Shown one piece after another: positions 7,395 through 62,790 of a stretch of 64,000 nucleotides of DNA. The DNA is taken from NCBI GenBank assembly GCA_964016885.1, contig CAXHJY010000192.1:28170-92169 (forward strand), read 5' to 3'. The DNA comes from Eledone cirrhosa. Taxonomy: Eukaryota. How positions within the stretch are numbered: the first letter of the stretch is position 1; every line of letters begins with the position of its first letter. A model generated the notes under the pieces. It did not search any database and was not told the DNA's origin. It saw only the letters and a program-made list of their open reading frames with translations. A program made the translations under genes and the position numbers.

Positions 7395-9850
7395 GACAGT
7401 GTGGATTGATTGCTTTTTGTCTTGTCACTAGCATAACTGCCATACAGAATGGACTGGTTGCTTTTTGTCTTGTCACTAGCATACTGCCATACAGAATGGA
7501 CTGGGTGCTTTTTGTCTTGTCACTAGCATACTGCCATACAGAATGGACTGGGTGCTTTTTGTCTTGTCACTAGCATACTGCCATACAGAATGGACTGGGT
7601 GCTTTTTGTCTTGTCACTAGCATACTGCCATACAGAATGGACTGGTTGCTTTTTGTCTTGTCACTAGCATACTGCCATACAGAATGGACTGGGTGCTTTT
7701 TGTCTTGTCACTAGCATACTGCCATACAGAATGGACTGGGTGCTTTTTGTCTTGTCACTAGCATGACTGCCATACAGAATGGACTGGGTGCTTTTTGTCT
7801 TGTCACTAGCATGACTGCCATACAGAATGGACTGGTTGCTTTTTGTCTTGTCACTAGCATACTGCCATACAGAATGGACTGGGTGCTTTTTGTCTTGTCA
7901 CTAGCATGACTGCCATACAGAATGGACTGGGTGCTTTTTGTCTTGTCACTAGCATGACTGCCATACAGAATGGACTGGGTGCTTTTTGTCTTGTCACTAG
8001 CATGACTGCCATACAGAATGGACTGGGTGCTTTTTGTCTTGTCACTAGCATGACTGCCATACAGAATGGACTGGGTGCTTTTTGTCTTGTCACTAGCATG
8101 ACTGCCATACAGAATGGACTGGGTGCTTTTTGTCTTGTCACTAGCATGACTGCCATACAGAATGGACTGGGTGCTTTTTGTCTTGTCACTAGCATGACTG
8201 CCATACAGAATGGACTGGGTGCTTTTTGTCTTGTCACTAGCATGACTGCCATACAGAATGGACTGGTTGCTTTTTGTCTTGTCACTAGCATGACTGCCAT
8301 ACAGAATGGACTGGGTGCTTTTTGTCTTGTCACTAGCATGACTGCCATACAGAATGGACTGGTTGCTTTTTGTCTTGTCACTAGCATGACTGCCATACAG
8401 AATGGACTGGGTGCTTTTTGTCTTGTCACTAGCATGACTGCCATACAGAATGGACTGGTTGCTTTTTGTCTTGTCACTAGCATGACTGCCATACAGAATG
8501 GACTGGGTGCTTTTTGTCTTGTCACTAGCATGACTGCCATACAGGATGGACTGGGTGATTTTTGTCTTGTCACTAGCATACTGCCATACAGAATGGACTG
8601 GGTGATTTTTGTCTTGTCACTAGCATGACTGCCATACAGAATGGACTGGGTGCTTTTTGTCTTGTCACTAGCATGACTGCCATACAGAATGGACTGGGTG
8701 CTTTTTGTCTTGTCACTAGCATGACTGCCATACAGAATGGACTGGGTGCTTTTTGTCTTGTCACTAGCATGACTGCCATACAGGATGGACTGGTTGCTTT
8801 TTGTCTTGTCACTAGCATGACTGCCATACAGAATGGACTGGGTGCTTTTTGTCTTGTCACTAGCATGACTGCCATACAGAATGGACTGGGTGCTTTTTGT
8901 CTTGTCACTAGCATGACTGCCATACAGAATGGACTGGTTGCTTTTTGTCTTGTCACTAGCATGACTGCCATACAGAATGGACTGGGTGCTTTTTGTCTTG
9001 TCACTAGCATGACTGCCATACAGAATGGACTGGTTGCTTTTTGTCTTGTCACTAGCATGACTGCCATACAGAATGGACTGGGTGCTTTTTGTCTTGTCAC
9101 TAGCATGACTGCCATACAGAATGGACTGGTTGCTTTTTGTCTTGTCACTAGCATGACTGCCATACAGAATGGACTGGGTGCTTTTTGTCTTGTCACTAGC
9201 ATGACTGCCATACAGAATGGACTGGTTGCTTTTTGTCTTGTCACTAGCATGACTGCCATACAGAATGGACTGGGTGCTTTTTGTCTTGTCACTAGCATGA
9301 CTGCCATACAGGATGGACTGGGTGATTTTTGTCTTGTCACTAGCATACTGCCATACAGAATGGACTGGGTGATTTTTGTCTTGTCACTAGCATACTGCCA
9401 TACAGGATGGACTGGGTGATTTTTGTCTTGTCACTAGCATACTGCCATACAGGATGGACTGGGTGCTTTTTGTCTTGTCACTAGCATGACTGCCATACAG
9501 AATGGACTGGGTGCTTTTTGTCTTGTCACTAGCATGACTGCCATACAGAATGGACTGGGTGCTTTTTGTCTTGTCACTAGCATACTGCCATACAGGATGG
9601 ACTTGGTGATTTTTGTCTTGTCACTAGCATGACTGCCATACAGAATGGACTGGGTGCTTTTTGTCTTGTCACTAGCATACTGCCATACAAGGTGGACTGG
9701 GTGCTTTTTGTCTTGTCACTAGCATGACTGCCATACAGAATGGACTGGGTGCTTTTTGTCTTGTCACTAGCATACTGCCATACAAGGTGGACTGGGTGCT
9801 TTTTGTCTTGTCACTAGCATGATTGCCGTACAAGGTGGACTCGGTGCTTT
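7395..9850. repeat. 47/48-bp minisatellite, about 50 copies, derived from a SINE internal segment
   Basis: Unit gactgccatacagaatggactgggtgctttttgtcttgtcactagcat, embedded in a SINE that starts at about 7308. Confidence 0.95.
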
Positions 9851-10173
9851 TTCATAGTGGTACCATTACGACCCACATTACAGTGTGGACAGAGTGCTTT
9901 TTCGTCAAGGTACCAGCACAACCTCTGAATAGTGTGGACAGGGTACTTTTTTTTGTCCTGTCACCAGCATAACATAGGGTGGACTGGGTGCTTTTGTTAA
10001 AAAAAGAAACTTGTATCTCCTCTTTTATCCTTCTATATATTTAACCAGTTGACATACCCAGCTTTGCCCAGGTAAACAGATGATAAGAGAAGACAGGTAA
10101 AAAAGAAAACGACTGTATTGGATGCATTGTCTGGTTTACAGTATGGAGGCGAGACCGTGGTGTGTGTGACAAA

Positions 10174-11339: not shown

Positions 11340-12550
11340 GTGGTGGTGGTGGTATTTGTGATGCAGAGATGGTGGTGGTGGTGGTGATGGTGGTGGTGAA
11401 GGTGATGGTGCGTGTGGTACTGATGATGGTGGTGATGGTGGTGATTGTGGTGAAGGTGGTGGTAGTGGTAGTGGTGGTGATGATGGTGGTAGTGGTGGTG
11501 ATGGTGGTAGTGGTGATGGTGGTGATTGTGGTGAAGGTGGTGGTGGTAAAGGTGATGGTGCTTGTGGTACTGATGATGGTGGTGATGGTGGTGATTGTGG
11601 TGAAGGTGGTGGTAGTGGTAGTGGTGGTGATGATGGTGGTAGTGGTGGTGATGGTGGTAGTGGTGATGGTGGTGATTGTGGTGAAGGTGGTGGTGGTGGT
11701 GGTAAAGGTGATGGTGCTTGTGGTACTGATGATGGTGGTGATGGTGGTGATTGTGGTGAAGGTGGTGGTAGTGGTAGTGGTGATGATGGTGATGGTGGTA
11801 GTGGTGGTGATGGTGGTGATTGTGGTGAAGGTGGTGGTGGTAGTGGTAGTGGTAGTGGTGATGGTGGTGGTATTGGTGATGGTGGTGATGAAGGTGGTGG
11901 TGATTGTGGTGAAGGTGGTGGTGGTGGTGGTAGTGGTAGTGATGGTGATGGTGGTAGTGGTGATAGTGGTGGTGATGGTGGTAGTGGTGATGGCGATGGT
12001 GGTGATGGTGGTAGTGGTGGTAGTGGTGGTGATGGTGGTAGTGGTGATGGCGATGGTGGTGATGGTGGTAGTGGTGGTGATGGTGATGGTGCTTGTGGTA
12101 CTGATGATGGTGGTGATGGTGGTGATTGTGGTGAAGGTGGTGGTGGTGGTAGTGGTAGTGGTGGTGATGGTAGTGGTGGTGGTGATGGTGGTAGTGGTGG
12201 TGATGGTAGTGGTGGTGATGGTGGTGATTGTGGTGAAGGTGGTGGTGGTGGTGGTAGTGGTAGTGGTGGTGATGATGGTGGTAGTGGTGGTGATGGTGGT
12301 AGTGGTGATGGTGGTGGTAGTGGTGATGGTGGTGATTGTGGTGAAGGTGGTGGTGGTAGTGGTAGTGATGGTGATGGTGGTAGTGGTGATAGTGGTGGTG
12401 ATGGTGGTAGTGGTGATGGTGGTAGTGATGATGGCGATGATGGTGATGGTGATGGTGCTTGTGGTACTGATGATGGTGGTGATGGTGATGGTGCTTGTGA
12501 AGGTGGTGGTGGTGGTAGTAGTGGTGGTGGTGAAGGTACTGGTGGTAGCA
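11340..12550. repeat. compound (GGT/GAT/AGT)n trinucleotide repeat
   Basis: Low-complexity GGT-rich tract with internal block duplications, inside PAQR3 intron 1. Confidence 0.95.
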
Positions 12551-24396: not shown

Positions 24397-24578
24397 ATGT
24401 ATATGTGTATATATGTATATATATATGTGTGTGTGTGTGTGTATGTATATATCAATAATATGAATGGGCTCGTTTGAAATGGATGGGCATGAGGGTATTA
24501 TAACCATAATATACTAATATAATATATATATTATATACAATATATATAATATATATATCAATAATATGAAAGGTTTAC

Positions 24579-24895
24579 CTTTTGAGACACAGATGGACGG
24601 GCAGGAGGGACCTATAACCACGTACAATATACTGGTTGATCCTTAGAAAATCGGGTATTTCATGGTCCCTGTATAAGGATATTTCCCTGGCATCTTTAAT
24701 ATTGATGTCATTTTTGGTGTTTCTCTTCTTTCTGTCCACCATCATTATTTGTCGACTGCAACAACAGAGCAGACAAGAAGATAATGACGATGGCGATGAA
24801 GATAAACTCTCGGCATCCACCTCAAGGTCCAAGATAACAATGCTGTTCGTCGAGCAACCACCGTCGTCTGCAATCTCAGCCGCCATGTTTTTCAT
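24579..24895 (-). CDS. PAQR3: PAQR3-like, coding exon 1 (start ATG at 24895 or 24886)
   Basis: MKNMAAE...ISLYRDHEIPDFLRINQYIVRGYRSLLPVHLCLK, with the PAQR N-terminal PxxLxxNxYIxxGYR motif. Donor AG|gtaaac, phase 2. Confidence 0.88.
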
Positions 24896-26822: not shown

Positions 26823-27833
26823 TACATACCTGCCGTGATCTGTTCTTGGTCCCCTTTTGTTTGTGGCATATATTAATGACATAGATGCCAACTTAAAGAA
26901 TGCCACGGTATTGAAATATGCAGATGACATCAAGCTGTACTTTGAAATCAAAAGGACTGATCCTGAAATCTACAACTCTTTCCTACAATCAAACCTGGAC
27001 ACAATGCAGCAATGGATCACAGACTGGCAACTGAAGCTGGCTGTGGACAAGTGTACCACCATGCATTTTTGGAGGAAAAATCCAGCGTCCACATACTCCC
27101 TCCACAACACTGATATCAAGAAGTCCTCTTGTGAACGTGACCTGGGCATTACTGTCAGCAGCGATTTGCGTTGGACAAAGCATGTCTCTAAGATTGTCAA
27201 GAAGGCCGAGGGTGTCTTGGCATCACTCAGCAAGACCTTTGTTAGCCGCTCTCCAGCCATCTATTTAAAGCTGTATACAGCTATGGTACGACCACACTTG
27301 GAATTCGCATCATCAGTCTGGAACCCCTATCTTGCTCAGAACATTGACCTCCTGGAAACTATTCAGAGACGTGCAACCAAACGCATACCCTCCATCAGGC
27401 ACCTACCATACTCTGAACGCCTTGCTTCTCGGGGCATGGATTCATTGAAGCTCCGACGTCTGGCAATGGACTTGGTAAACACCCACAAAGTTATTAACCA
27501 TCTCGCCAACAACCCTGAGCACCTTTTTGATCTCCATGTGTCTAACACATGTGGACATGCCTACAAAGTCAGAAAACAGCACAGCTCCCATAACTTTCGG
27601 AAACATTTTTTCACGCTCAGAGTTGCTGAAGCATGGAACAAACTGCCTGCGTCAGTTGTTAGCTGCCGAGACACTGCATCCTTTAAGACCCTCATGCTTC
27701 CCGAAATTCGCCAAAACTACACCTGATGTACCCCTTCCATACACATGCACACATGTGTATATCATGACTCATGCACTGTTCATTTTCCTGACGTTTGATG
27801 AGTTGTAGTGCACATTATTATTATTATTATTAT
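26823..27833 (+). mobile_element. CR1-clade LINE, 5'-truncated (RT C-terminal half, 3' UTR, (TTA)n tail)
   Basis: YADD motif plus LYTAMVRPHLEFASSVWNPY, IQRRATKRI and FFTLRVAEAWNKLP, all typical of CR1/L2 ORF2. Confidence 0.92.
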
Positions 27834-34875: not shown

Positions 34876-34913
<38 letters not shown>

Positions 34914-35574
34914 GTGGTAAAATGTAATGTATCCTAGTTGGATAGTTCATTGACATAGACGTGAGGGAAGGTCCCTCGTCTATTTACCATTTTGTGTTTG
35001 TGAGAATTATAACAAAGTCAGTGAGTGTGTGCGCAAACAAGACAATAACCACAACGAGAGTTAAATTCAACAATTGTAAATAATGGTGATTTATTTATAC
35101 TACAAATGGAACGTACCAAATGTTGACGTGGTGAGTTGTGGTGAAAGGAACGTATTACCATTACAAAAGTATTGTGGGGTTTATTGTTTGCTGTTCCCTT
35201 GGCTGCTTTCTGTGGCGTGGTACAGAGGCTGTTTTCTGGCATGTGATCAGTCTGCTTTCTAGTGGATGTCTGTTTACTTCTCATGTTCTCAACCAGCGGG
35301 AGATAACTATGGTTGTTCTATTATCCTGGCAGGAGGCGTGAGGCGTCTTACTACAGTATCCCCTGCCAGATTTTCAAATCATCGAAAATCGATGTCATTA
35401 CTCACATGTGGAGTAAGATGGCGAACAATGCAACAAGGGGGAGCTATTCGCTCTACCAAACGTTGAATCCAGAATAAGTATTTGAAAAATGTTTAAAAAA
35501 AACAACATGCATGCATAAAAAACAAGGCAAAGAAAAAGCAGAAACACAGAGGCAAAAAAAAAAAAAAAAGGGTT

Positions 35575-35609
35575 AGCTAACATAGTCTAAATATAGACGG
35601 TGCTGCAAA
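35575..35609 (+). repeat. left copy of the 35-bp direct repeat flanking the viral insert
   Basis: agctaacatagtctaaatatagacggtgctgcaaa is identical to 38092-38126. Both copies are preceded by an A-run and gggt. Confidence 0.95.
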
Positions 35610-35610
35610 A

Positions 35611-36700
35611 TCCAATACACAGGAGATTCTTCCAAAGCATATCCTACATTTTATGGTCCGATATTGCCAGAAGTACTTAATGTTTGATATTAATAAGGAT
35701 TTGCTCCAATACGATTTCTTGAAGACAAGACAGTCAGCGGGTCCTGCCGATTTTTTTTGTAATTAATGAAGACTCTAGCTTCCCGACCCCAACTGCGGCC
35801 GATTCAACACCCAGTAATCACCATGGTCTTCTTCTTTACATTGTCACCATGTACAAAGTTGAAAATGGAAGTGGGTGACTACAAACAAAATCTAGTCAAG
35901 GATTTCAACAATTATAGAATGACGCACCCATATCGGTATATGCACGACATGTTAATAAATGGACCACTAGCTCATATAGTAAAAAATGACCAAATCTTTC
36001 AGATTATGGCTTCCATGGACTATTTGCCATTTCAACATGAGGATCATGAACTATCCCTTTTGAGAAGAGGGACAATTCTTACCAGATTTGACGGCATGCA
36101 CATAGTAGAAGTCCTCGACCATTTCAGAAAAACACTCCAATTGAGGCTTGAAGATATGATCTGTATCGTAACAATGAGGCTGGTGCTACAGAAATGTTGA
36201 GAGTACTGAAAGCCCTGAATACAGGGGCAGCTAATACTGAAATCTTCCCTTATCAAAAATCTCTCGGCTTGATCAAAAAATGTGTTTTCTCAGCAGGCTC
36301 CAATCCCTATCTACACACATTCTTCGGAATGATAGGTTGCCTCAGCAAGGATAAAAGATTTGTTAATTCCCGAAATATAGAGCCAGGACATGTTGAATCT
36401 GGTCTGGTTGACGCGCTCGCATTCAGAGTGGCTCATAGATCCAAACCGCACAAAGTCTTCTTTTATGCTGAGGAAGGACAAGTTGATGAGGATCCAGATA
36501 TAGATCTCAATCAGATAGGTTTTGGAATTTCAGAAAGTATGGTACAGATGGTGAACAGGTTTCCAAATCCGACAAGTTTTATCTCAACATTCAATAAAAG
36601 CGCGATTAGCAAAGTTAGACCCGGAACATTGGGGCAGGCTTTTAATGATTCTGTTACAGAAGCACAGAAATCTGGGGGGGGGGGGGGTATCAAGAATTGA
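35611..36700 (+). pseudogene. endogenous rhabdovirus-like nucleoprotein (N) gene, 5'-truncated and frameshifted
   Basis: Stitched frames give LLLYIVTMYKV..DYKQNL, IMASMDY..HEDHELSLLRRGTILTRF and PYQKSLGLIKKCVFSAGSNPYLH. These are collinear with vesiculovirus N motifs as I recall them: LYLLGLYRV..EYRKKL, IVAAVDMF..KHECASFRYGTIVSRF and PYLIDFGLSSKSPYSSVKNPAFH. Frameshifts at about 35755, 35873 and 36185. Confidence 0.88.
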
Positions 36701-36772
36701 AGGACTTTATAGACGGTCATTAACTTTTTATTTTTATACAATCACTTTTCATACTTTTATAACATTGTACAG

Positions 36773-36800
36773 CATCAGAAAAAAAAACTAACTCAATTTC
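36773..36800 (+). promoter_or_regulatory. rhabdovirus-type gene-end/intergenic/gene-start junction
   Basis: CATCAG-A9-CT-AACTCAATTTC between the N stop and the next ATG. Compare vesiculovirus TATG-A7-CT-AACAG. Confidence 0.8.
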
Positions 36801-36829
36801 ATACTTAACTAACAAAACCACTGCCCAAA

Positions 36830-37818
36830 ATGCCGCAAGATAGACAGAGACAGTGCAGGAAATCATACAACTATGCCAAGGGAAACAAAGTAGCCTTAGG
36901 CTCCCTTAAGGAAATCTGTGGAGCCATTGGTGCAACTACCCTTCCAGAGGACAATCGTGTGTCTGAACTTCTAGAAACATCCAGAATGGGAAGAGATGAC
37001 CCTCAAAATACACCAAGCTACGAGTATAGTGGCGAATTACCCGACTCCAGCTTGATACCTACAAAAATGGAAATAGGCTATGAATCCCAACATGAGGAGA
37101 CTAATGAACCTCCTCTTTACCAAGTAACTAAAGAGCACAGGGAAAGGAGAGAAAGAGTATCCCTACCTTTATCTCTACCACCTCCCAAAGTTGGTCAACC
37201 CTCAAGCATACCAAGTGACTTCTCTGAACCTCCTGAGAAGAGGAGTTGTCAGGGGGGGGGGGGGGGACTCTTATATACGAGTCTAACGCAATTTTTGTAT
37301 CACCTGAGGAGGCTGATATATTCAAGAGGTCATTTGATATACTCTTCAAGGATAGTATGGACAGAAATTTTCTCCCGCATGTCATTATAGAGCCTCATGG
37401 AGATATTTTGAGCATTAAAATGACAATGCGAAACATGCCTGCACAACCAGTTGAAAACGTTGTGGAAAATGTTGCTCCACCTATGCCAGTACCAGAGGAC
37501 AACACTTCATGTGCAAAACTGACTGATGAATTTCATGAAAGAATGGCTCAAATCAAATCAAAATCTATATTTTATCGCATGGACAAGTTTAAAATGGATA
37601 CCATAGGTTTAAAAGGACATGCAAAACCTGTAAACGATTTTTTGGAATTATGACTGTCAAGTCGAAAATTGAGGAATTTCCGGGATCCCCGAATGCCTGA
37701 TAAGTGGCTAGTGCTGATGATCGTGCACCTTAATCCTAATCCCATTATAAGAGCTGCCTTAGGCTTCAAAACTTTCAACAAGTATGTGCTAGAGATTAAC
37801 GACATTTTATCAACCTGA
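36830..37818 (+). pseudogene. putative viral phosphoprotein (P-position) gene, disrupted
   Basis: First ATG after the junction, with an acidic, S/P/E-rich N-terminal half. Frameshift in the G15 run at 37252-37266. After an in-frame TGA at 37651-37653 the frame stays open to TGA 37816-37818. Identity is from position and composition only. Confidence 0.65.
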
Positions 37819-38091
37819 TAACTATTCATTGAGTTCACTCAAATTCATGAGTTACAGGACATAATCTTCACAATGGAAGTATTACATATAAGTCTCCAGA
37901 AGTCACCCCATTTTACTCATTATTTTTCAGACTGCAGATACCAAAACACTGATATACAGCATGGAATCAGTCATTTTAACAAACTAGGACAAATTAACAC
38001 AAACAAAACCGACTATCTCTGTATAATGCCTCAAGAGCCTTATATTGCTTTTGCCTTATAAATTTAAACAGGAAAAAAAAAAAAAGGGTGC

Positions 38092-38126
38092 AGCTAACAT
38101 AGTCTAAATATAGACGGTGCTGCAAA
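38092..38126 (+). repeat. right copy of the 35-bp direct repeat, after A13
   Basis: Identical to 35575-35609 and preceded by CAGG-A13 (A-run 38073-38085). Confidence 0.95.
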
Positions 38127-38525
38127 TTTTTTGGGGCCAGTGGACCCTACGACCTGAACGGGTCGTGGTCTTGTAACGTGGCGATGGTGGTGGTGTAGAA
38201 ATTAGAGATGAAATGTATGTTTATTTTTGATGTAGCACAAACAATGTTTGTTAACTTATGTGGTTGAAGTTACACATAAAAAGAGGTTACAAAAGGGAAT
38301 GTGCCATTGCGCCGGAAAGCCGGCAGGCTAAGGTGCAAAATCTCACCGTTACATTGTACGTGTTGCTGGTTCGAAGTTCCTGGTGCGAGAGAGAGATTCT
38401 TCAAATCTTCGCGGGGAAATTTCTCTCTCAGGGCGCGTAGGGATACATCCTCTTCTACTGGCGCTGATTGGCTGAACTGAGCTAAATCACGCACAGAGAA
38501 TGTATGTGAGCCCGCGGAATGTAGG

Positions 38526-38582
<57 letters not shown>

Positions 38583-55495: not shown

Positions 55496-57338
55496 CAGCA
55501 TTTCTCAACCAGTGTTCCCCGGAACCCTAGGATTTCGCAAGAGGTCGCTAGGGGTTCCGCGAGAACCAGTGATAAATAAACTAATGTATTTTAAAAAGTA
55601 ATTTTTGTTTAATTTTATATTCGTAATTTTACTATACATTTACGGCATATTGTTGGAAAATCCTTGTTTATTTTAAGAAAGGCTTCAACTTCTTATATTA
55701 TTTAAAACTAGGTCAATATAAGAGATAGATATTAATAATTGTTTCTACTTTAGGCACAAGGCCAGCAATTACCCAGTACATTACTGGTACTTTATTTTAT
55801 TGACCCCGTAAGGATGAAAGGCAAAGTTAACCTCGGCGGGATTTGAACTCAGAATAGCAAGGGCCGTAACTCTATGCGTCAAATCATGGCGTCCGACCTT
55901 CTACCAATACACCGCCCTTAGATCATCATCATCATCATTTTACGTCCGCTTTTCCCTGCTTGCAAGGGTAGGACGGGTCTTATTCAGCACAGCATCTCTC
56001 CACTCGTCACGGCCCCTCATCATCTCCACCATGAGCTTCAATGATCTGAGGTCTGTTCTCACCACCTCCGCCCATGTTTTTCGTGGTCTACCTCTACCAC
56101 GTCTTCCCTCAACTGGCAATTCCTGGCACTTTTTCACCCATCGGTCATCCTCCATGCGCATCACATGTCCATACCACCTCAGTCTCCTCTCCCGTACACT
56201 ACATTCTATCCCTCTCAGACACAGTTTCTCTCTCAACACATTTATGCTGGGTTGTTCACGCACATTTATACTGCACATCTAACGGAGCATGCTTGCCTCA
56301 TTTCTATCCAGCCATCGCATATCCTCTGCAGTTGCTGCCCATGTCTCACTACCATGCAGCATCGCACTCCTCACACAGGCATCATACAACCGGCCTTTCG
56401 TACGCAGGGAGAAACCCGTCTTCGTCAACAAAGGAAGCAGTTCCCTAAACTTCTTCCAACCCGTCCTTATTCTAGATACTATGGCCTCGGAACACCCTCC
56501 TCCCATGCTAATCTGATCTCCTAGGTACCGGAAGCTATCCACCACTTCTATAGCGCCCTCTTGCATTTGAAAAATGTGTCTATCAGTGCGACTTTTACTG
56601 TCTAATTTCCCTGTACATCTACTGCATACATATTTCTCCCTACCTGTTAGTTTGCCTGCTATCCCGCTACATCTCTTGTGTATCCAGGATCTGCATTGTG
56701 TGCATTTTATAGAATTTATGCCAGTTCCTTTTCTGCATATCGAACATGGCCATTTCCCTGACGGAATCAAGGTTTTGTCCTCTTTTCTACTCATCAACAC
56801 TTTTGTCTTAGCTAGATTCACTCTCAGTCCTCTTGCTTCCAACTGCTGTTTCCATAGCCAGAATTTATTCTCTAGCTCCTCTACTGATTCTGCTATAAGA
56901 ACCAGATCGTCAGCATAGAGAAGTTCCCATGGACAGCCAGTCTTAAACTCCTCTGTTATGGCTTGGAGGACTATAATGAACAAGAGCGGACTGAGGACCG
57001 AACTCTGTACTCCTACTTGTATCTGGAATTCCTCACTAAACTCCATTCCTACCCTGACTTTACTGAGAGTACCTCTGTACAAAGTTTGCACTGTCCTCAC
57101 AAGCCATTCCTCAACACCTAGCTTCCTTAGGGACCACCAGATGACAGATCGGGGTACCCTATCAAAGGCCTTCTCTAGGTCAACAAAGGCTAAGTATAGT
57201 GGCTTATTCTTCTCTAAGAACCTCTCTTGCAATTAGATAGATATTAATAATGGTATATAATAATTTTTATGTAGGGGTTCCCTGAGACATGAACCTATTT
57301 CAAGGGTTCCACAAGGGTAAAAAGATTGAGAAACGCTG
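55496..57338. mobile_element. hAT (Charlie-like) MITE interrupted by a retroelement insertion
   Basis: TIRs cagcatttctcaa / ttgagaaacgctg. 8-bp TSD atctagac at 55488-55495 and 57339-57346. Confidence 0.8.
55921..57232 (-). mobile_element. RTE-clade LINE, 5'-truncated, RT domain with one premature stop
   Basis: FVDLEKAFDRV, LSPLLF and LLYADDL motifs. TAG at 56279-56281 where the copy at 1-575 has TGG. (GAT)n tail. Confidence 0.93.
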
Positions 57339-61641: not shown

Positions 61642-62790
61642 CTACCTTAAAAAGTCAAACGAAATTAATTCTTTCAATTGTGTTGGAAGATTTAAATCTT
61701 TCACCTTATCCAATTTTCTTCCTAACTGCTGGCGTATAGTAAGTGCACAGATGTCTGCGAGAGATTTAGGGTTGCCAACCAGTTCCAAAAGCCACAACAT
61801 AACTTCCTCATGGGGACTGTCCCTAAAAGGAGGGTTCTTTAATCGTAACCAACTCTCAGAATTTACATTGTAACCAGAATGCACAAGTAATTTTATCATT
61901 TTCGAATCTGCCCTGAGAGTGGCAGTATATAAAGGTGAATGTCCTGCATTGTTGGCTGTGTTAAGTCTAACATTTTCTGTAATTAAATACTTAGCCACTT
62001 CATACCTGTTGTGGTAAACGGCCAGGTGGAAGGCAGTGAAACCGTGAAGGGTTTGTCCTTCTACGTCAATTCCACAGCTAACTAACAGTTTCACTATGTG
62101 TAAGTGTCCACAGCTTGCAGCTATGTGAAGGGCCGTTTCATTATCGTTCGTAGTCCTATTGATATCGGCACTTACCCGGATCAACATTTCCACAACCTTT
62201 ATGTAACCATAGCAGGTTGATGTGTGTATAGGCGCCCACCCGTCCCTATCAACCATATCAACTTTGGCACCATACCGAATTAGTAGTTCGCAAATATCCA
62301 AATGTCCCAGGCATGTCGCAGCATGTAACGGTGTAAAGCGGTCCATTTGAGCAATATTAACACTGGCTCCCATTCGGATTAAATACTCAGCAATTTGGAC
62401 GTGTCCATGTGTAGAAGCCCAGTGCAAAGCTGTTTTCTCGTCGCCGTCTCGACAGTCGACATCAACACCGACTTTTAAAAGGGCCTGTACATAGTTCAAA
62501 TGACCCTTGGCAGCGGCGATATGGATGGGTCGCCGAAACCAAATGTGGTCAGTAAAATCAGGCTGGGCCAAATCACAGTTGGCCTCAATAAGCATGTTTA
62601 AAACATCTATGTTACCTCGTTCGGAAGCTACACATATCGGACTGTAGCCTTCCAACACGAAACATGGACAAACATTTTTCTCTTTGATATATCTTCGGAC
62701 TTTGTCCACGTCGTCATAGGAAATTGCTTCCAACAGTTCCCGTTGACCAAATTCACCTCCCGTCGTGTAGCTACATGGTAGCATCTTCAT
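61642..62790 (-). CDS. ankyrin-repeat and SOCS-box protein (ASB-like), 382 aa, single coding exon
   Basis: About 8 ankyrin repeats (TALHWAS, TPLHAAT, TALHIAA and others) and a C-terminal SOCS box PKSLADICALTIRQQLG...LNLPTQLKELI. Intact ATG to stop. Confidence 0.93.
   Translation of the reverse strand: MKMLPCSYTTGGEFGQRELLEAISYDDVDKVRRYIKEKNVCPCFVLEGYSPICVASERGNIDVLNMLIEANCDLAQPDFTDHIWFRRPIHIAAAKGHLNYVQALLKVGVDVDCRDGDEKTALHWASTHGHVQIAEYLIRMGASVNIAQMDRFTPLHAATCLGHLDICELLIRYGAKVDMVDRDGWAPIHTSTCYGYIKVVEMLIRVSADINRTTNDNETALHIAASCGHLHIVKLLVSCGIDVEGQTLHGFTAFHLAVYHNRYEVAKYLITENVRLNTANNAGHSPLYTATLRADSKMIKLLVHSGYNVNSESWLRLKNPPFRDSPHEEVMLWLLELVGNPKSLADICALTIRQQLGRKLDKVKDLNLPTQLKELISFDFLR

Follow-up and report, generated by a model that had tools for sequence, protein, structure and literature searches.

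The stretch analyzed here, hereafter the window, comprises 64,000 nucleotides (nt) of the genome of the octopod Eledone cirrhosa (assembly GCA_964016885.1, contig CAXHJY010000192.1, positions 28,170 to 92,169). According to our analysis, it contains a rhabdovirus fossil, in which a broken nucleoprotein (N) gene is followed by a gene junction and by a second broken open reading frame (ORF) in the position of the phosphoprotein (P) gene. A Ty3/gypsy retrotransposon carries this viral insert at its 3' end, in antisense orientation. The initial annotation had proposed such an element between 35554 and 38126; the viral insert itself occupies 35610–38072, and the outer limits given earlier fall on a 54-nt host duplication, one copy of which lies on each side of the insert. 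The features of the locus, including the long terminal repeats (LTRs), the untranslated region (UTR) and the putative polypurine tract (PPT) of the host element, are as follows.

34913–35356, minus strand: 3' LTR (type A) of the Ty3/gypsy element, whose outer terminus lies within a (TA)n microsatellite; seen in empty (virus-free) copies
35357–35555, minus strand: PPT-like stretch (~35357–35370) and retroelement 3' UTR; matches 18 empty copies
35556–35609, no strand assigned: left copy of the 54-nt host duplication, made up of an A-run and the last part of the pol frame; all 18 empty copies have it once
35610–36700, plus strand: rhabdovirus N pseudogene; identified by Pfam PF00945, a sister copy and a structure model
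36773–36794, plus strand: gene junction, with gene end CATCAG-A9, intergenic CT and gene start AACTC; supported by signals at other N copies
36830–37818, plus strand: broken P-position ORF of ~330 codons; assigned by position and composition
37819–38072, plus strand: viral-like tail with a 79-codon stop-free frame (37822–38058); ends before the A-run
38073–38126, no strand assigned: right copy of the 54-nt duplication (A13 and host sequence); found by repeat search and in empty copies
38127–38196, minus strand: 70-nt tail of the integrase frame, 97% identical to empty copy L012; reads as an integrase C-terminus
38197–38533, minus strand: type B partial LTR, from a related subfamily; abuts the integrase tail directly and reaches its LTR terminus within (TA)n

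The Nucleoprotein Gene

All of the motifs that had been quoted for the N gene are present across the broken frames, in the order given, between 35834 and 36316: LYIVTMYKV at 35834, ASMDY at 36009, LRRGTILTRF at 36060, PYQKSLGL at 36248, and FSAGSNPYLH at 36287. The frame is broken near 35755, 35865, and 36171, and a long G-run occupies 36674–36687. About 60 N-terminal codons are absent from N in the window and in its sister copy at C2:47.05 (loci are given as contig:megabase, Mb), and these codons are kept at C28, C5:61, C2:336, and C25.

The rhabdovirus identity claimed for this gene is carried by profile, sequence, and fold. The two longest N fragments of the window match the Rhabdo_ncap profile (PF00945) colinearly, at profile positions 140–240 (E 5.9e-4) and 248–342 (E 5.5e-6), and their best, though weak, matches among PDB sequences are the nucleoproteins of vesicular stomatitis virus (VSV) and of another rhabdovirus. 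On the same profile the natural frame of the sister copy reaches E 2e-21, and four other frames tested reach E 4.5e-15 to 1e-22; in bits, the sister and related N copies score 56–81 on the nucleocapsid profile (cut-off 26).

The comparison with VSV N suggested earlier gave a concordant result. A model of the sister-copy protein built on a 125-row alignment (predicted local distance difference test, pLDDT, 91; predicted template modeling score, pTM, 0.87) has the two-lobed fold of rhabdovirus N. Against the N proteins of VSV, spring viremia of carp virus (SVCV), and lyssaviruses, Foldseek gave E values of 3e-10 to 5e-7 and template modeling (TM) scores of 0.65–0.75. The PDB structure matches listed with E < 0.001 (38 counted) were all N of VSV, SVCV, or lyssaviruses, and N of other Mononegavirales gave E above 0.03. 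The BFVD structure list agrees, its top matches all being rhabdovirus N. The alignment included rhabdovirus N rows, so the fold is not independent of the sequence; it leans on the alignment, because the single-sequence fold failed (pLDDT 40) and was set aside. Taken together, it is virtually certain that the element is a rhabdovirus N fossil.

The Gene Junction and the Second Gene

The junction described in the initial annotation, CATCAG-A9-CT-AACTC, is present at 36773–36794. It resembles the VSV junction consensus, A7-9-CT-AAC. The octopod pattern was matched three times in the 3.0-Gb genome (the window, the sister copy, and one chance match), and the reversed control gave 0 matches; the third motif, at C3:304.5 Mb, was dismissed as chance, being surrounded by host repeats with no viral context. 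Among the other N copies, N is closely preceded by CT-AACTC at C2:336 and by AACAC at C5:61; its 3' end is marked by CATTAG-A9 at C2:55.9 and by CACT with an A-run at C5:61. Because these copies carry related signals independently, AACTC at 36790 is interpreted as a gene start with the next viral gene downstream.

In animal rhabdovirus genomes P is the second gene (order N-P), and it diverges fast. The P-position ORF of the window begins with ATG at 36830, changes frame at a G-run (37252–37266), is interrupted by an in-frame stop at 37651, and runs to 37818. Its earlier description as acidic and proline-rich holds only moderately: the first two parts have 16% D+E, 8–11% P, and a pI of 5.3–5.5, and the last 54 amino acids (aa) are basic. 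The mRNA strand is virus-like, with 0.047–0.054 bits per base versus 95th percentiles of 0.035–0.049 for 500-nt pieces of the window background, and the 3' part of the gene is single-copy in a repeat-rich genome. No homolog of the pieces was detected in Pfam, PDB, or ESM Atlas (the best Atlas score, 0.80, is at chance level), and across the genome the ORF matched only its own sister copy. A cadherin match to an acidic patch (E 0.34) was rejected as compositional.

Since no homolog is detectable, the call rests on position; by position, size, and composition, the second gene is very probably P. It is improbable that this ORF is an accessory gene or unrelated sequence beside an N that is still viral. 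Such a reading draws on the database and genome searches and on the only moderate acidity, but the gene-start signal ahead of the ORF also precedes N in other copies, and the ORF is P-like in size, single-copy, and at or above the 95th percentile of the background in its mRNA-strand score. In mosquito screens, P or M (matrix) genes likewise went undetected (PMC5497376).

The viral-like tail is unique in the genome and gave no Pfam match over the cut-off; its 79-codon frame may be a small accessory ORF or a 3' UTR. Separately, a 182-nt contig identical to window positions 37728–37909 was present at depth 3 in a run labelled as another organism; contamination or a relative is possible, and this is too little to interpret. 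A search for the rhabdovirus glycoprotein family across the genome gave no match, and its controls also gave none, so it provides no evidence either way.

The Host Retroelement

The LTR terminus to the left of the insert recurs in the empty copies L010, L012, L014, and L020, which continue into an integrase frame. This minus-strand frame is 69% identical to a pol with reverse transcriptase, RNase H, and integrase domains, which identifies the host element as a Ty3/gypsy retrotransposon. The stretch at ~35357–35370, judging from its place beside the LTR start, is a predicted PPT. When 20 loci with the left flank were fetched, two carried virus; all of the other 18 contain the 54-nt repeat once and continue as the right flank of the window. 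On the minus strand, the integrase frame terminates within the left copy of the repeat.

Short-read contig depth is in the hundreds to thousands over the 3' LTR, versus 4–13 over the viral insert, and is also very high over the type B partial LTR. The joint between the integrase tail and this partial LTR was found once in the genome; consequently, the assembly holds no virus-free version of the deleted element.

Nucleoprotein Loci Across the Genome

Searches of the genome gave seven matches at the DNA level and 21 at the protein level, which resolve into 10 N loci: the window, C2:47.05, C4:337, C5:74.85, C2:55.9, C2:336, C2:46.93, C28:117.5, C5:61.2, and C25:7.9. Seven of the 10 lie inside LTR elements, corresponding to five of eight captures with distinct joints. 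Four of these five LTR-borne captures are antisense and show the order LTR, PPT, UTR, N, partial LTR; this arrangement, with the partial LTR running to its terminus, is repeated at C4:337, C5:74.85, C2:55.9, and C28. The only sense-oriented capture between two LTRs is C2:336 (336.02 Mb), a two-LTR element with a primer-binding site, in which N replaces most of pol and stands between a gag-protease remnant and the 3' UTR.

Outside both LTR ends, 4-bp duplications were found at C5:74.85 (GTTC), C2:55.9 (AGCG), C2:336 (AGGC), and C4:337 (TATA, in TA-rich sequence), that is, at four of the five loci tested at both ends, the fifth being the window, which is uninformative. C4:337, C5:74.85, C2:336, and C28 end with neither a gene end nor poly(A) and are therefore not processed mRNAs. 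At C4:337 and C5:74.85 the virus–LTR joint falls on a 6–7-nt match; both joints are common to the two loci and the target sites differ, which shows that the chimera was re-inserted after capture. The sister copy C2:47.05 begins exactly at the LTR terminus and stops within the P-position gene; over 1,497 aligned viral bases, it shows 20 differences from the window.

Two of the loci have particular surroundings. The N fragment at C2:46.93, 116 kb from the sister copy, adjoins a Helitron-like helicase region that was recognized by eye. At C28 (117477200–117484970), each of five tandem units of ~1,796 nt contains the 5' half of N, complete at its start, together with an LTR end, a PPT, and 3' internal sequence; other LTR elements are clustered nearby.

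Proposed Mechanism of Capture

We consider it probable that the viral sequence was acquired by template switching during LTR reverse transcription, followed by integrase-mediated insertion. In terms of the reaction steps of LTR reverse transcription, minus-strand cDNA would have run through the 3' LTR, PPT, 3' UTR, and the end of pol and then jumped onto the negative-sense viral genome, from which N, the junction, and P would have been copied in the virus's own transcription direction. The intergenic CT, which is untranscribed, would have been retained because the template would have been the viral genome. A return jump to retroelement RNA at an A/U run would have left 54 nt repeated, synthesis would have been completed on the LTR via a short match and not at the primer-binding site, and the product, with two LTR termini, would have been integrated. 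A later partial copy of the window chimera may have given rise to C2:47.05 Mb. Recombinants of lymphocytic choriomeningitis virus (LCMV) with the intracisternal A-particle (IAP) provide a precedent for an RNA virus joined to an LTR element (PMC3205384), and Ty3/gypsy elements are enriched around the viral integrations of mosquitoes, for which template switching has been proposed (PMC5497376).

The window alone would also fit retroposition by a long interspersed nuclear element (LINE), in which an N-P read-through mRNA carrying poly(A) would have been reverse-transcribed by target priming into a resident LTR element, with the 54-nt repeat as the target-site duplication. The insert is mRNA-sense, truncated at its 5' end, and followed by A13; the duplication begins with the A-run of the target, LINE-type reverse transcriptases are present in the window, and C5:61 may be such a case. 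This route is, moreover, accepted for bornavirus elements (PMC3205384). However, it requires a read-through mRNA, and the insert crosses the junction between two transcription units; of the marks of a LINE-made processed copy, the A-run and the 54-nt duplication are present, but the 3' end, AAACAGG-A13, is a poor fit to the N gene-end motif CAT(C/T)AG. A length of 54 nt is also long for LINE-type duplications. In addition, LINE retroposition leaves unexplained the five of eight captures in a rare LTR family, four of them antisense beside the 3' UTR, the several captures with 4-bp duplications and no poly(A), and the unique joint of integrase tail and LTR 70 nt away. We regard it as unlikely.

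Several observations besides the fit of the window to LINE retroposition count against template switching within an LTR element. The low background of the LTR library speaks for LTR capture, only 147 bases, none of them internal sequence, having matched it among 220,000 bases from 22 stretches; but this figure is a floor, since the library was made from the flanks of the N loci and one pol protein. No LTR piece of the library was matched at C2:46.93 and C25, and C5:61 resembles a complete N transcript with an A-run and adjoins an internal fragment only. The flanking repeat of C2:47.05 measures 102 nt and not 4 bp, and the 4-bp flanks of the window are TATA inside (TA)n and carry no information on target duplication. 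The two LTRs of the window belong to different subfamilies, which calls for mixed packaging or a later event. Finally, the absence of a P homolog must be set on the same side.

Reality, Inheritance, and Age of the Insert

The germline integration proposed earlier is demonstrated by the empty-site comparison and by DNA reads over the left junction from other individuals. Restriction-site-associated DNA (RAD) read pairs cross the left host junction, from 35510 to 35764, in three of three runs from three other individuals, sequenced for a separate study; per run, 96–108 molecules end at 35764 and 131–240 begin at 35510. The RAD coverage concerns the left junction, which is common to the sister copy, and includes neither the P region nor the right junction. 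About half of the pairs carry the base of the window at 35738 and half that of the sister copy; because both bases are seen, both copies probably exist in the RAD animals.

A short-read contig of 2,531 nt spans the whole insert (three runs of one sample, which is possibly the assembly's own). The frame breaks of the window N are absent from the short-read contigs of these three runs, where collapsed contigs can mix copies; the breaks may be private to the haplotype or may be assembly errors on the 92-kb contig. An assembly artefact or contamination on this small contig is nevertheless extremely unlikely as the source of the element. In its favor, the contig is unplaced, and the missing N frame breaks indicate that some differences may be assembly errors; against it stand the short-read contig across the whole insert, the RAD pairs over the left junction in three individuals, and the related loci on chromosome-scale contigs.

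Divergence is low, with LTR ends differing by 0–3% and the window and sister copy by 1.3%, which suggests recent events. Between capture lineages, synonymous divergence (dS) is saturated and non-synonymous divergence (dN) is 0.11–0.29, with a dN/dS of 0.04 for C4 versus C2:55.9. These values indicate different viruses under purifying selection and not one decayed insertion. The window and the sister copy differ by six synonymous and nine non-synonymous changes (p 0.14), and neutrality is not rejected. C4:337.14 Mb and C5:74.85 Mb, which have the same joints, differ by 17 synonymous and 14 non-synonymous changes (p 0.0004). The viral piece is probably a decaying passenger; its most likely role, if it has any, would be in LTR-driven antisense viral RNA feeding a small-RNA defence.

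The Virus Lineage

A search with N against 1.84 billion representatives gave 181 matches; five are 43–60% identical and the other 145 listed are 20–34% identical. Three of the five closest correspond to proteins annotated in Octopus bimaculoides and Argonauta hians. The cephalopod host presumed in the initial annotation is supported, in that the nearest named N relatives come from these two genomes; the repeat landscape likewise points to an octopod. Identity to the named rhabdoviruses checked is 23–28%.

In the N tree (FastTree, 124 rows), 10 rows fall on one side of a branch with a support of 100, a stem of 1.29, and no supported sister; they comprise six copies of the E. cirrhosa genome and four of the five close relatives. 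Both this tree and the L tree described below were made with FastTree only, and the N tree omits 32 of the 150 listed matches (<330 aa). These sequences appear to represent a deep rhabdovirus lineage that, among the matches listed, is found only in octopod genomes.

An exogenous member of the clade was not found in searches of proteins, metagenome contigs, and viral contigs. A word-index search with the C-terminal fragment of the window against longer proteins confirmed 0 of 584 candidates, and one made with an alignment against proteins of 30–78 aa confirmed 0 of eight. For the sister-copy N, 0 of 54 pattern matches were confirmed in metagenome contigs and 0 of three in viral contigs.

No exogenous virus therefore fixes the host, which lends some weight to the idea that the virus belonged to a parasite, symbiont, or prey and that its RNA reached octopus germ cells incidentally. 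We regard this as very unlikely, because at least eight independent captures from several virus lineages (N 57–92% identical, synonymous sites saturated between lineages), together with relatives in two other octopod genera, imply that virus replicated repeatedly in cells whose host retroelements were active.

A polymerase (L) fossil was also observed in the genome. At C3:130160000–130164830, a broken rhabdovirus-like L of 4.8 kb retains the RNA-dependent RNA polymerase (RdRp), capping, and connector regions and part of the methyltransferase; at its end lie internal repeats of RdRp pieces and then an antisense Ty3/gypsy UTR with a 901-codon pol frame. It is unlinked to N, has its nearest matches among animal rhabdovirus L proteins, and is 45–52% identical to 120 listed L proteins, including 48% to the L of Killamcar virus. 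In the L tree (a 425-aa piece, 121 rows, including neither a lyssavirus nor another outgroup), it forms a long branch with no supported grouping that would place it in a named genus or in the Alpharhabdovirinae. We infer that it belongs with the octopod N lineage. Elsewhere, C27:16994600–16997300 is a scrambled mosaic of short L fragments in shuffled order, 57–92% identical to the C3 fossil. Weak Mononegavirales polymerase matches at C23:16.22 Mb and C3:37.50 Mb give no alignment to the C3:130 L and possibly derive from another virus family.

Relation to Known Systems

There is precedent for endogenous viral elements (EVEs) from rhabdoviruses, for LTR-mediated capture, and for rhabdoviruses of molluscs. 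The lineage had been called a possibly undescribed mollusc-infecting one; its divergence stands, but rhabdoviruses of mussels (Killamcar virus 1) and gastropods (Conus, Crassispira) have been published (PMC11141596), and the novelty is qualified to that extent. The Conus and Crassispira viruses fall basal to lyssaviruses (PMC11141596), and the octopus L fossil, although likewise from a mollusc, does not group with Killamcar L. Among the animal rhabdoviruses considered (VSV, SVCV, lyssaviruses, almendraviruses, and sigmaviruses), the octopod N shares its fold with VSV, SVCV, and lyssaviruses, but its identity is low and its clade long-stemmed. No cephalopod rhabdovirus EVE was described in the literature titles and abstract openings searched, a coverage that excludes most subscription journals, and text searches of PMC12548735 and PMC10101049 gave no mention of octopus or cephalopod. 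A rhabdovirus in cephalopod metatranscriptomes is the subject, according to its title, of Rey-Campos et al. (2023); the sequences of that study may be members of the octopod clade or transcripts of such elements.

The closest parallels are found among integrated sequences. The non-retroviral integrated RNA virus sequences (NIRVS) of Aedes and other arthropods are alike in that N is commonly captured, Ty3/gypsy elements are associated, and template switching has been proposed (PMC5497376). They differ in that P and M integrations went undetected in that screen, whereas here the host is a mollusc and a gene junction and P-position gene are kept; furthermore, the octopus loci reveal their joints, LTR termini, and 4-bp duplications at single-base resolution. 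Production of PIWI-interacting RNAs (piRNAs) has been shown for mosquito NIRVS (PMC5497376), and somatic and germline piRNAs have been reported in molluscs (10.1101/250761).

The LCMV-IAP cDNA of mice is similar in that sequence from an RNA virus was linked to an LTR retrotransposon and became integrated; according to the review cited, however, an endogenous LCMV element is not known (PMC3205384), whereas in the octopus such products are passed on in the germline, occur at least five times, and underwent further copying. Endogenous bornavirus-like nucleoproteins (EBLN) are likewise mononegaviral N sequences in an animal germline, with flanking duplication and A-run. Unlike EBLN, which are single-gene mRNA copies made by LINE-1 (PMC3205384), the octopus insert crosses a transcription-unit boundary and lies inside an LTR element.

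Other Features of the Window

Outside the viral locus, an intact frame of 382 codons at 61642–62790 (minus strand) encodes ankyrin repeats and a SOCS box and represents a host ASB-type gene. Remnants of LINE-type reverse transcriptases were found at 56279–57232 (minus strand), with a PHD finger inside, and at 26839–27726 (plus strand). A short exon-like frame at ~24575–24700 (minus strand), with no Pfam match, resembles what we take to be the start of a PAQR-family membrane receptor. The window also contains a 48-bp tandem array of 51 copies with 97% identity (7411–9852) and a long GGT/GAT trinucleotide-type array (11370–12546). Between 45000 and 49000 there is a strong A-over-T skew (0.25–0.29) and no 75-codon frame; this is possibly a decayed LINE.

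Implications

A broader, speculative reading, which we consider doubtful in its full extent, is that octopod Ty3/gypsy elements form a recurring capture system for cephalopod-specific rhabdoviruses of genus or subfamily rank. Such a system would combine antisense copying near the 3' LTR, re-transposition of the hybrids, and antisense piRNAs, and might amount to a heritable, sequence-specific antiviral memory as proposed for mosquitoes. If this were true, the synonymous excess between the C4 and C5 copies would hint at N copies kept under selection.

In conclusion, the loci provide a germline record, datable in principle, that a deep rhabdovirus lineage appears to have infected octopods repeatedly, and their junction signals and likely P gene are features missed by homology screens. 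They also offer a clean natural record of the probable entry of an RNA virus into the germline via an LTR retrotransposon, a route that in insects is mostly inferred from neighborhood statistics. Two questions thereby become open to direct test: whether the "rhabdovirus" transcripts of cephalopods originate in live virus or in endogenous elements, and whether viral inserts serve as small-RNA templates in molluscs.

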